Shown piece after piece: positions 1-9,219 of a stretch of 12,646 nt of DNA (within the stretch, counting starts at the first letter, position 1; each line of letters starts with the position of its first letter). The translations under genes and the position numbers were made by a program. Below the pieces are notes generated by a model. The model searched no databases. It had not been told where the DNA came from and worked only from the letters and a program-made list of their open reading frames with translations. The DNA is from a virus (Duplodnaviria > Heunggongvirae > Uroviricota > Caudoviricetes). Location of the stretch: IMG/VR virus record IMGVR_UViG_2531839662_000020. One strand, given 5' to 3'.

Positions 1-474
1 AGTTTGCTCCTGCCATAACGTGAAGAAGCAATGACCTGGTGGTCCGTGACTTCCCTACGCTGGCATTATCCAGATCAGGTGATACGGGTATTTCTTACTG
101 ATTTTTGTTATCAGTTGATAATTAATAAGTTTTTCAGCAAACAAGAATTAAAAACTTCAAAACTGACCACACAACTGACCACACATTTTGTTGAAGCTCT
201 ACGAACAAAGACGAACAATAACAAACAAAAGGGAAATTTGCTGGCAGTTTTGCTTAACCGTTATCATTTTTCGGCTATCCGTTATCAAGCTGGTGGATGA
301 TCACGGATAACCCGTTATGGGAATCCCCATATCGGCATCATGCCCACCAGCATGAAGTATTTTTCGCGGATGTAAAAATTTGACGGGGCGGGCGGTCCCA
401 TAAGCAATGGGGGGGTAGGGATTCCGCTCCCCCCCCCTCCCGAATGCAATTTTTCTTATATATATACAAAACAG

Positions 475-1481: not shown

Positions 1482-3143
1482 TTATACCCCATCAAACGCC
1501 GCAAGCCGCTCTTTGTGGCTGTCGCTCATATCGAATGCAAATTCCTCATGTTCTGCCTGGAATGTGCCAAACGCCATCAGCGCCGCAACGCTCGGGTCTA
1601 TCTTGTTGGATGATTTTTTCTTGTTCGGCTTGATATTGGCGTTCGCGTCACTCTGCATCACAACATTACTCATTGACCAGGCCAGCACCGGATCGCCACG
1701 ATGCACAATCACCTTCCGGTTAACAAAAACTTCGAACGATTTCGCCGCCGGACTGAAACGAAGGTATGTTTGCGGGAACGGCTCCACCTCAAATCCTGCC
1801 CCCTGTAGCTGCGTCCTCAGGTGCGTGGCGTTCCATGTATCGAAGCCCACCAGCCTGATATTGAAATTCTCTGCATCCGCCATGATGTCATCACGGATAC
1901 GGTCATAATCAATGCAGTCACCCGGTGTTGTGCGTATCCAGCCCGCCTTTACCCACTGGCGATAGATGGCGCGGTTTTTATTGGCGGGGTTCTGTAGCTG
2001 AAACTCCGGCAGATAGTGACGGGAAACCAGCATAATCTTTTTACCGACCGGAAAGGCATAGCACACGCTGGAAATATCGCTGGTTGATGATAAGTCCAGC
2101 CCCGCGTAGCACTCCTGCCCGTATAAATCCGCCTCCGCGAACGTTCCGGCGCACTCCGCCCATGCACCGTTACCCATCCACGGCGTGGCCCCCTGACACC
2201 AGATATTGAATCGCTTAGTGAGCATTTCCACCCACTGCGACGGAATACCCCGCGCTTTCTGGATGGTTGAGGCCAGTTTTTCACGATCGACGGAAACATC
2301 GATATTGGGATTCGCCTTTATCCACATCGCCGGATCGTCAACCTCGCTTTCATCATCCAGCTCGTAAATCAGCACGAACATGGATTCGTTCACCTCTTCA
2401 CCATCCAGTATCTGGCAGCAATAGTCGTAGTGTTGTTTACAGGCTGAAACAACGTTGCTCCCCGATGTGGTGATGGCAAATAATAACCCCTCCGGACGCG
2501 CCCCCATTCCCAGTTCAAGCGCGGAATAAACCCCGTTGTCAGGGTGCAGGTGATATTCATCCACAATGGCAAGACTCGGGTTTGTACCTTCAATGGTTGC
2601 CGCTTTTGCTGCCAGTGGCTTTAACAGGCTGTTGGTTTTCGGGTGTATCACCTTGTGTGCCTGAATATTTACCCGCTTTCGCAACGGTCGGGATAAAAGG
2701 CACATCTGACGCGCATCATCAAACACGATCCGCGCCTGATCACGACTCACGGCGGCGGTGTAAATATCCTGCTGCCCGTTTTCCATAACCAGAAACCAGT
2801 TAGCCAGGATAGCGGCGACCGTGGATTTGGCATTTTTTCGCGGCACTTCAATGAATGCGCTGGTGTATTTGCGCCGTCCGGTGGCCTTAACCTTAAAGCC
2901 CAGGATGCACGCAAAGGCGAACTGCTGCCACGGCTCCAGCTCAATGGGGCTACCGCGCATTGCGCCTTTTACGTGCGGACACACCCTGGAAAAGGCAATA
3001 AACCGCTCCACGACCTCCGGATCGAACGTGTAAAGGGGGTTTTCAAGGTCAGAAAAATACCGTTTAACGGCCTGTTTCAGTCGTTTACAGGCCGTAATTT
3101 TGCCGTTTTTTACGCCTTCTGCGTACTCATGCCAGGCGGTCAA
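1482..3143 (-). CDS. terL: Terminase large subunit (Terminase_1-like)
   Basis: 553-aa ORF with LEPWQ...F motif and P-loop-like VPRKNAKST near the N-terminus, then a nuclease-type C-terminal half. Apparent TTG start preceded by GAGGA. Overlaps the small terminase by 17 nt. Confidence 0.88.
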   Translation of the reverse strand: MTAWHEYAEGVKNGKITACKRLKQAVKRYFSDLENPLYTFDPEVVERFIAFSRVCPHVKGAMRGSPIELEPWQQFAFACILGFKVKATGRRKYTSAFIEVPRKNAKSTVAAILANWFLVMENGQQDIYTAAVSRDQARIVFDDARQMCLLSRPLRKRVNIQAHKVIHPKTNSLLKPLAAKAATIEGTNPSLAIVDEYHLHPDNGVYSALELGMGARPEGLLFAITTSGSNVVSACKQHYDYCCQILDGEEVNESMFVLIYELDDESEVDDPAMWIKANPNIDVSVDREKLASTIQKARGIPSQWVEMLTKRFNIWCQGATPWMGNGAWAECAGTFAEADLYGQECYAGLDLSSTSDISSVCYAFPVGKKIMLVSRHYLPEFQLQNPANKNRAIYRQWVKAGWIRTTPGDCIDYDRIRDDIMADAENFNIRLVGFDTWNATHLRTQLQGAGFEVEPFPQTYLRFSPAAKSFEVFVNRKVIVHRGDPVLAWSMSNVVMQSDANANIKPNKKKSSNKIDPSVAALMAFGTFQAEHEEFAFDMSDSHKERLAAFDGV

Positions 3144-3483
3144 GCTCGTCCTCTTCCTCTGTTTCCGGTGGATTTCTGCGGCGACTTACCGGGTCAAAAC
3201 CCAGCAAAGAAGCCATTTTGATCATTATTCTTTCCGCGTCAGCCTTTGCGCTCAGGGCGGGGTTTCTGCTCTCGCTGCCCTGACTGTTAACAATGCTGAA
3301 CCCGCGCGTGGCAAGGTCTTCGACGGCTTTGCGGTATATGGAGTAGTTAACGCAATATAGCTCCAGATTGCTCCAGTCGGCGGGGGTAAGGTCTTCCCGT
3401 CCGGAAAGCTGGCGCGATTTTTCCTTCCACTGCCTGACCGCGATTTCATCCAGGTAAGCGGGGGCTTTTGGTGGTCTTGCCAT
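3127..3483 (-). CDS. terS: Terminase small subunit, P27 family-like
   Basis: N-terminus MARPPKAPAYLDEIAVRQW is typical of P27-type small terminases and the length is about 118 aa. The longer track ORF (to 3624) is rejected as an N-terminal extension. Sits immediately upstream of terL. Confidence 0.75.
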   Translation of the reverse strand: MARPPKAPAYLDEIAVRQWKEKSRQLSGREDLTPADWSNLELYCVNYSIYRKAVEDLATRGFSIVNSQGSESRNPALSAKADAERIMIKMASLLGFDPVSRRRNPPETEEEDELDRLA

Positions 3484-3771
3484 GTTCTCTTTTCGCCCAA
3501 TTATTTTCAAAAAAAATCCCGTGCACAAAAATTTGAGGAGGCGGTCGGTGTCCGGCAGGGACGGTTTTGTCCTGAAAACCTCCCCCACCCCCTCTGACGG
3601 CCTCACCAGCGATTGCGAAAACATTCCATGACCTCGCGGTCACGGTCGGTTAATTGCTTCGCTGTGGTGCGTTCTGTGCGCCCTGTCCTGTTGGCTTTGT
3701 GCCCTGTCTCCTGTGTCTTCCATAAGTCACGCTGCCTTATCAGTCCACGTATCAGCCTGTTTTGCTCCTGT
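3484..3771. other. Candidate cos / terminase recognition region (HNH-TerS intergenic)
   Basis: 288-bp non-coding gap between the HNH gene and terS, the position cos occupies in HK97-like phages. Contains two 15-bp direct repeats (3676-3690 and 3698-3714), a C-rich tract at 3578-3600 and an A-tract at 3509-3530. Cut site not determinable from sequence. Confidence 0.3.
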
Positions 3772-4212
3772 TCAGTCATCATCGCCATACATCCAGTCGT
3801 TACGGTGTGCCGCCCGTTCTTCCTGCTCGCGATACATGCCCGCCTTACGGTTCGCTTTCGTGGCTGGATCTTCCCGTGTCGTCTTACGGTTGTGGCACGT
3901 CTGGCACAATGCCTGGTGATTCCACTCAGGCCAGAAGAGAACATCACCGCCGCCATTGATGGGAATGATGTGATCCACCACAAGAGCTGGCGTATAAATC
4001 CCCTTAGCCAGACAACGCACGCATAACGGGTTTTTGCTCAGGTACAGGGCGCGGTATTTGTCCCACTGTCGGGAATACCCGCGCGCGCGGCGGTGTCCCC
4101 GTCTGGCATCCTCTGCACGCCATGCAGCCCGCCTGTGCTCTTCACACTTTCCGGACTTCACGCGCTTATTACAGCCCGGCTCAGTGCAGCGCCTTAATGG
4201 TTGCCACGGCAT
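3772..4212 (-). CDS. HNH endonuclease (packaging-associated)
   Basis: 146 aa with CxxC...VDHIIP...N.Q.LC..CHNRKT HNH/zinc-finger motif. Start overlaps the connector stop (TGATG). Located just upstream of terS as in HK97-like packaging modules. Confidence 0.85.
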   Translation of the reverse strand: MPWQPLRRCTEPGCNKRVKSGKCEEHRRAAWRAEDARRGHRRARGYSRQWDKYRALYLSKNPLCVRCLAKGIYTPALVVDHIIPINGGGDVLFWPEWNHQALCQTCHNRKTTREDPATKANRKAGMYREQEERAAHRNDWMYGDDD

Positions 4213-9022: not shown

Positions 9023-9085
9023 GCTGTCTGCTCTCCGGTTTTAACGTTGATGGTTACGCTTGTTTACACCCTTACGGTGAAATTC

Positions 9086-9219
9086 TGCGGGTTATAATCG
9101 CACTTTTGCGGGTTATAACTGCCGTTTTGCGGGTTACGTGCGGGTTATTGATTTCCTTTTTATTCATACAGTTAATGCACTTATATACATGATAACCCGC
9201 ATAACCCGCATAACCCGCA
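9086..9219. repeat. Iteron cluster A: 4 direct TGCGGGTTA(T/C) repeats (spacing 21/21/11 bp), AT-rich spacer, 3 tandem inverted ATAACCCGC
   Basis: Direct copies at 9086-9095, 9107-9116, 9128-9137 and 9139-9148. AT-rich stretch 9149-9191. Inverted tandem copies across 9192-9219. Lies in the 220-bp gap between the primase-helicase stop and ssb start. Confidence 0.75.

Follow-up and report, generated by a model that had tools for sequence, protein, structure and literature searches.

The window analysed here is a 12,646-nucleotide stretch of DNA from an IMG/VR virus record, and all of its relevant genes are encoded on the minus strand (Table 1). In the Pfam and PGAP annotations, the morphogenetic genes for the major capsid protein, the prohead protease, the portal and the head-tail connector come first and are followed by hnh, terS and terL. 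In brief, the HNH protein is 36% identical to HK97 gp74 over 88 aa, and TerL carries the same two Pfam families as HK97 gp2. For TerS, we detected no sequence or profile homology to HK97 TerS or to any solved structure; its structural model has the HK97 TerS fold, as judged by fold comparison, and some 35 N-terminal residues that are usual in the family are missing from it. A TerS of 165 aa, with its start at ATG 3624, is called by many annotation pipelines. The 47-residue extension runs through the conserved blocks described below, and its frame is closed by stop codons in other lineages; the start of the 118-aa protein at 3483 is the conserved one.

The HNH and TerS open reading frames flank exactly 288 bases (3484-3771), as had been noted in an earlier, sequence-only reading of this DNA. 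That reading treated the whole gap as intergenic, which holds only for the 119 bp at 3484-3602. The remaining 60% of the gap is protein coding and belongs to a conserved small ORF, which starts at ATG 3782 (alternative starts 3788 and 3779) and whose start overlaps the stop codon of hnh. PGAP annotates this ORF in Escherichia coli UMNF18, and its homologues fall into 22 clusters. Among 15 diverged lineages, 13 keep the frame open, and the C-terminus is conserved (ERDRE.xECFRNR); the islands of Pasteurellaceae do not have the ORF. It has no Pfam match, and its only PHROG match is to phrog_3173, a family of unknown function. The ORF is located between hnh and the proposed cos site and is translationally coupled to hnh; small ORFs occupy the equivalent position in phi105 (ORF20), in D3 and probably in HK97. 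Both the C-rich tract (CCTCCCCCACCCCC, 3579-3592) and the A-tract (A8, 3509-3516) that had been pointed out earlier are present, on the plus strand, and correspond to conserved elements.

Table 1. Coordinates of the features discussed in the text (window numbering)
Feature	Position	Strand	Description or basis
attR, direct repeat at the island end	159..228		70-nt repeat, 91% identity
Second cos-like site (site 2)	370..441	-	GGGAGGGGGGGGGAG, 33 nt, CCGCCCGCCCCGTCAAATTTTTAC
Large terminase gene (terL), 553 aa	1482..3143	-	PF03354 and PF20441
Small terminase gene (terS), 118 aa, P27 family	3127..3483	-	PF05119, E 1.6e-23
Proposed cos site (cos1), true intergenic region	3484..3602	-	Conserved blocks
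Block 2b, predicted TerS binding site (cosB equivalent)	3523-3501	-	CACGGGA-T8-GAAAATAA
Block 2a, C-rich core, predicted nicking region (cosN equivalent)	3553-3527	-	GGACACCGACCGCCTCCTCAAATTTTT
Block 1, G-tract and tail	3592-3566	-	GGGGGTGGGGGAGG (3592-3579), then TTTTCAGGACAAA; near-invariant
Conserved small ORF, 59 aa	3603..3782	-	phrog_3173 end to end, E 2e-28
HNH endonuclease gene (hnh), 146 aa, packaging accessory nuclease	3772..4212	-	PF01844, E 8.8e-10; phrog_144, E 3.6e-45
Major capsid gene	7504-6335	-	Pfam

A capsid-forming island between thiM and rcnR

We identify the element as a phage satellite of approximately 15.7 kb, namely a capsid-forming phage-inducible chromosomal island (cf-PICI). 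E. coli UMNF18 carries a copy (L001) that is 99.6-99.9% identical to the window and is inserted between thiM and rcnR. Its att repeats, at 9061-9130 and 24776-24845 of L001, are 15,715 bp apart; the partner of the attR repeat is located beside the integrase gene, outside the window. The tyrosine integrase is encoded at the far end of the island, which also contains DUF927 primase-like, SSB and ProQ-like genes. We did not find a tail module or lysis genes among the 20 genes annotated between the att repeats of this copy. Core chromosome is confined to positions 1-95 of the window, the thiM riboswitch.

Published cf-PICIs of Proteobacteria have the morphogenetic genes first and then hnh-terS-terL, are about 15 kb in size and require only the tails of a helper phage (Alqurainy et al. 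2022/23). An island with att repeats at its ends, an integrase at one of them and a size within the range of about 10-18 kb was found here too. Gene order, size and the lack of tail and lysis genes thus fit the published definition of a cf-PICI, and the element is not the HK97-like prophage for which it had been taken. The DNA of cf-PICI particles has been reported to have cohesive ends or to form cohesive-end concatemers (He et al. 2025). It should be noted that induction by a helper phage, supply of helper tails and formation of small capsids have been shown for the relatives EcCIEDL933 and KpCIDSM30104 only.

In the UMNF18 copy, terS and hnh (L001 12028-13112) are annotated as frameshifted pseudogenes, which could be an assembly error or genuine decay; both genes are intact in the window. 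A single assembly, Pasteurellaceae bacterium Macca, holds at least nine terS loci of the window's TerS family on several contigs (L407-L414, L429), which suggests that cf-PICIs are present in many copies or that an island has been amplified or induced.

Conserved blocks in the non-coding region

We consider it likely that the packaging site of the island is the 119-bp non-coding region between the small ORF and terS, read on the minus strand and here called cos1. Its conservation was assessed in alignments of 15 representative islands and then of approximately 37 loci from approximately 30 genera of Enterobacterales, Aeromonas and Pasteurellaceae. Three blocks stand out, with a mean pairwise identity of 0.85-0.89, compared with 0.65 for the third codon positions of terS and 0.52-0.58 for the spacers between the blocks. 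In brief, block 1 is a G-tract with its tail, block 2a contains the C-rich core CCGCCTCCTCAAATTTTT (3544-3527, minus strand), and block 2b is a short G:C element followed by a run of T. All three are kept across the roughly 30 genera, and the T-run is found in every genus. In Pasteurellaceae they are retained although the flanking DNA cannot be aligned and the small ORF is missing, and in some members of this family an insert of 80-100 nt separates undisturbed blocks from terS.

The blocks immediately precede terS, and promoters can contain T-runs and A/T-rich boxes. The blocks might be signals for the expression of terS and terL, acting as a promoter, an RNA element or a translational control, with cos located elsewhere. 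On the coding strand upstream of terS we found neither a sigma-70-like promoter nor a convincing terminator; one weak promoter-like match was obtained, at 3477-3504 on the plus strand. A search against Rfam gave no match, and the fold is not better than that of shuffled sequences (z -0.67). An expression signal would also not account for the similarity of the blocks to the DNA of the mapped cos sites of HK97, phiKO2 and a mycobacteriophage, whose terS upstream regions are otherwise unrelated, and the Pasteurellaceae inserts part the blocks from terS while leaving them intact. We therefore regard an expression role in place of cos as unlikely.

Two loci (L035 and L120) encode a TerS that is 100% identical to that of the window, yet there are two types of hnh and small ORF, with approximately 83% DNA identity. 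Based on this observation, the cos region acts as a mosaic junction between the head and terminase modules.

Mapped cos sites and the position of the cut

In HK97, cos is cut between positions -1 and +1 to leave a 3' overhang of 10 nt, and gp74 stimulates the cleavage. The minimal TerS site of HK97 is CTAACCCGATTTTTT, from +15 to +29; the G:C pair at 21 is essential to it, as is the A-tract at 24-29 (PMC11331095). The HK97 junction reads ...CAGGGCAGGGGGGGGGATCAAATCTTCAAAACCTTTGCCCCAAATGACCGCCGCCAAA|GTTTGAATTTAACGCTAACCCGATTTTTTTAG...ATG(terS), and its elements recur in cos1 in the same order and with similar spacing: a G-run, CAAAACC, GACCGCC.CC..AAA and C..GA-T7. Block 2a aligns with the cuts of HK97 (GACCGCCGCCAAA|G) and phiKO2 (GGACTGCCGCTTCA|G), and block 2b resembles the mapped TerS site of HK97. 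The score of the HK97 alignment (z 5.5) is only moderately significant, being reached by 18 of 2000 dinucleotide shuffles; the phiKO2 junction gave z 6.2. For cos1 of the Klebsiella type, local alignment alone gave no significant match to mapped cos sites. Location between hnh and terS and a TerL of the HK97 family are the marks of an HK97-type cos, and both are found here. By homology, cos1 is probably a cos of this HNH-dependent type.

A low-stringency BLAST search with the intergenic region as query showed that 153 Cluster-E-like mycobacteriophages carry GTCAGAGGGGGTGGGGG.GGTT, which is identical to block 1 at 21 of 22 positions. Each match is weak alone (E about 4); the motif is located 28-49 nt from the mapped right end, just downstream of the HNH gene, and its position and orientation make chance unlikely, an argument that is post hoc. 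We then surveyed the right ends of nine phages, selected on no other grounds than a TerL homologue and a right-end HNH gene: HK97 (L151), phiKO2 (L432) and those at loci L434, L435, L436, L381, L433, L382 and L301. The tract was defined as a 10-mer with at least 8 G (or a C-run) at 20-60 nt from the right physical end. Such a tract is present in eight of the nine phages, and 6 of 220 background windows have one (binomial P 2.7e-12). The G-tract ends 29-47 nt from the right end in HK97, phiKO2, phiL7, Eudoria, Shambre1 and 16-3, the Firmicute phages phi105 and Eltigre have a C-run at the equivalent distance, and the tract of Xop411 is weaker and falls below the threshold. The G-tract is roughly GGG(G)T(A)GGGGG in shape. 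As a G/C-tract recurs at HNH-type cos ends, block 1 of the island is a local instance of a widespread feature. A narrow literature search gave no description of a G-rich element in HNH-type cos sites.

Three estimates of the minus-strand nick were obtained. The HK97 alignment places it after CAAA (3532|3531), the phiKO2 alignment at 3537|3536, and the G-tract used as a ruler (37-43 nt from 3579) at 3536-3542, a spread of about 10 nt (3531 to 3542). If a 3' overhang of 9-12 nt is assumed, the partner nick is estimated to lie 9-12 nt upstream, at approximately 3541-3553. The nicking region would thus be approximately 3531-3553, which is as fine as these estimates resolve.

The record LR881103, of vB_KppS-Ant, is a SPAdes assembly of Nextera XT reads from lysate DNA of particles induced from Klebsiella pneumoniae DSM 30104. 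It is linear and runs from terS to hnh and the small ORF. In comparison with integrated copies that are more than 99% identical, 69 bp are lacking at its ends, GAACACGAGGGCGCCAGGCACCACCCGCCCCCTCAAATTTTTTCGCTCGGTGATTTTTTTGAAAATAAA, corresponding to 3568-3500 of the window; the midpoint of this gap is CCCCCTC|AAAT, at about window position 3534. It should be noted that tagmentation under-represents the ends of molecules. The gap fits termini in the C-rich core and is compatible with them rather than a proof. The 16.5-kb record itself (LR881103.1, L002, named 'Escherichia phage vB_KppS-Ant') is a cf-PICI, evidently KpCIDSM30104; the accompanying paper describes it as a filamentous ssDNA prophage, with one gene labelled 'tail length tape measure protein'.

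Other apparent ends were rejected as evidence for termini. Two IMG/VR contigs end at about 3534 (L118) and 3547 (L145), and their far ends are provirus or att boundaries; the genomes in question hold several islands, so repeat-induced breaks or provirus trimming explain these contig ends better. The 15.5-kb E. fergusonii and 15.8-kb Pantoea contigs have the integrated order and end at att, not at cos. A scan of 75 metagenome loci gave no contig ends within 60 nt of the G-tract and no pile-up; pattern scans return chunked loci. The 106-kb record PQ569648 is chimeric, with junctions at gene edges. This record (PQ569648.1, L150, Klebsiella phage P12620-1) ends in a full cf-PICI, from terS through hnh and the small ORF (88.5-106.5 kb), joined to unrelated phage DNA exactly at the start of terS, and it looks like a chimeric assembly.

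The placing of cos between hnh and terS by the sequence-only reading is well supported by conserved non-coding blocks, by collinearity with the HK97 and phiKO2 cos sites, by a TerS model of HK97 fold and by an assembly break in particle-derived DNA. By analogy with HK97, we propose that packaging may proceed as follows. Replication of the island would give concatemers. A TerS ring with the HK97 TerS fold would grip CACGGGA-T8 (3523-3509), approximately 10-30 bp downstream of the cut, and TerL and HNH would nick the two strands at staggered positions within or next to the C-rich core CCGCCTCCTCAAA (approximately 3531-3553), probably leaving cohesive 3' overhangs of about 10 nt. The G-tract at 3592-3579, located approximately 40 bp upstream of the nicks and a conserved hallmark of HNH-dependent cos sites, probably serves at termination to position the TerL/HNH complex or to make it pause. 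Packaging would start on the terS side, take in terL, att, int, the replication genes and the capsid genes in turn, and end after hnh. With cos between hnh and terS and packaging in this direction, the packaged genome would be a circular permutation of the integrated order.

Because the TerS model shares the HK97 TerS fold, it is plausible that the island protein reads the G:C and T-run element in the manner of HK97; as there is no homology to HK97 TerS at the sequence level, a shared mode of DNA recognition is not guaranteed. For the G-tract, which is found from Actinobacteria to Proteobacteria and inverted in Firmicutes, we tentatively speculate that it is a near-universal recognition or pausing element of HNH-dependent terminases, read by TerL/HNH and not by TerS.

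A second cos-like site, other readings and related systems

The sequence-only reading had named packaged termini elsewhere, for example within positions 1-1190, as a finding that would speak against a cos between hnh and terS. A block scan of the window did reveal a partial, phage-like cos copy there, site 2 (441-370), in the same orientation as cos1 and approximately 150 bp inside attR. This copy is specific to a lineage, whereas the site between hnh and terS is universal. Site 2 shares with cos1 the G-tract, the spacing and 19 of 23 core positions, a score that none of 3000 shuffles reached. Its alignment with the phiKO2 cos runs collinearly through the cut, with z 7.9 for the copy in the window and 12 for the commoner variant; it is also collinear with HK97 (z 6.1), and it is closer to phage cos sites than cos1 is. 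It has no T8-GAAAATAA block. The region in which it is found, positions 96-1190 between the last gene of the packaging module (1192-1476, phrog_1561) and attR, is mosaic and also contains an (AT)n run; it is present as a whole in a single complete E. coli genome, and its ORFs matched no Pfam or PHROG family. We did not detect an Rpp-like or other recognisable gene beside site 2. The reverse complement of site 2 resembles lambda cosN (ACGGGGCGG), which is probably a low-complexity coincidence.

Site 2 might be the functional cos, or a second functional one, cut by the island terminase or by a helper of the HK97/phiKO2/N15 type that packages the island into helper capsids. In addition to the similarities given above, this has a precedent in the classical PICI EcCICFT073, which has two functional cosN copies (PMC6092414), and classical PICIs use a cos of the helper type; a satellite with two cos sites is thus not without precedent. 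Only part of the window-like lineage carries site 2, in about 16 sequence variants. None of the 45 islands examined of the other main lineage (80-90% TerS identity) has it, nor do vB_KppS-Ant, Pmp8 and an E. fergusonii island, and its absence from vB_KppS-Ant leaves the break in the LR881103 assembly unexplained. Most copies also have a weak G-tract, and the T8-GAAAATAA block that they lack is present in every cos1. As a competitor to cos1, site 2 is in our view improbable, and we give even less credence to site 2 as the sole cos. An additional working site, which is compatible with cos1 as the packaging site, is possible but doubtful, and we suggest equally tentatively that such a site might open another way into helper capsids or divert the helper terminase as a decoy. 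We regard cos1 as the universal and primary site and site 2 as a lineage-specific extra, which may serve as a second route or a decoy, or may persist as a relic.

The sequence-only reading combined the HK97-like prophage with TerS binding to two direct repeats of 15-17 bp (3675-3714). The repeats exist, at 3675-3691 and 3698-3714, and cosB sites of the lambda type are repeats. The two copies agree at 13 of 17 positions, and when the gap was shuffled by mononucleotides, 30 of 300 trials yielded an equal or better repeat. They fall in the most variable part of the small ORF (mean pairwise identity 0.55) and are deleted or replaced in other lineages with 83-86% identical TerS. Being at chance level, in variable coding DNA and unconserved, they are not plausible TerS sites. 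Furthermore, the TerS site of HK97 is located downstream of the cut, not upstream, and the element is a cf-PICI. The conserved TerS-binding repeats beside the cut that distinguish a lambda-type cos were not found, the repeats at 3675-3714 being the only ones present, and we consider this model very unlikely. Headful (pac) packaging with no defined cos is the least probable, since nothing specific favours it beyond the frequency of TerS-adjacent pac sites in other phages, and cf-PICI particle DNA shows cohesive-end concatemers (He et al. 2025), HNH with a TerL of the HK97 type is the signature of 3'-overhang cos systems, and the nine relatives with mapped ends in the survey are, without exception, phages of the cos type.

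Specialists would look for a cos where cos1 is located; what can be used and tested further are the blocks as defined here, the G-tract rule that holds across phyla and the second copy of cos. Since cf-PICIs pass from one species to another, package nothing but themselves and disregard the helper terminase, a cos known to about 20 bp can show which sequence confers this exclusivity. It would also permit the construction of cosmids or delivery vectors for cf-PICI capsids, with the three blocks as mutagenesis targets. With the G-tract as a landmark approximately 40 bp from the cut, a simple rule could predict HNH-type cos termini from sequence alone, and the recurrence of the tract provides a handle on recognition by the HNH/TerL pair. 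The phage-like second copy leads to the testable idea that a site serving helper terminases as a back-up or decoy is retained by some cf-PICIs.

The closest known elements, EcCIEDL933 (L004) and KpCIDSM30104 (L002), resemble the window island in gene order and content, have TerS and TerL that are approximately 83-85% identical and share the intergenic blocks; their packaging is of the cos type, by the island's own HNH-TerS-TerL, as proposed for the window island. We did not find a mapped cos for cf-PICIs of this type in the literature examined. The window island belongs to another lineage, with approximately 76% DNA identity in the HNH region and an insertion between thiM and rcnR, and has the extra cos-like copy near attR that these two lack.

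HK97 is a phage of 39.7 kb and the island a satellite of 15.7 kb; the cut is mapped in HK97 and predicted for the island, only about 55-60% of the cos DNA can be aligned, and the TerS proteins have no detectable sequence similarity. In the phiKO2 or N15-type cos, the order and spacing of the G-tract, GATCAAATCCC, GGACTGCC and the cut are those of cos1. This cos differs in belonging to a 51.6-kb linear-plasmid prophage and in its terS-proximal half, and cos1 has diverged further from it than site 2. EcCICFT073 is, like the window island, a satellite with two cos-like sites and a related integrase and replication module. In contrast, it encodes neither a terminase nor a capsid, and its cos is of the lambda type (12-nt 5' overhang) and is cut by the helper terminase, the helper TerS being redirected by Rpp. 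The lambda cos itself (cosQ-cosN-cosB, R sites, IHF) shares with cos1 the cutting of unit lengths upstream of the small terminase gene and the position of TerS on the terS side, whereas its terminase belongs to another family, acts with no HNH protein, leaves 5' overhangs and has a TerS that binds repeats.
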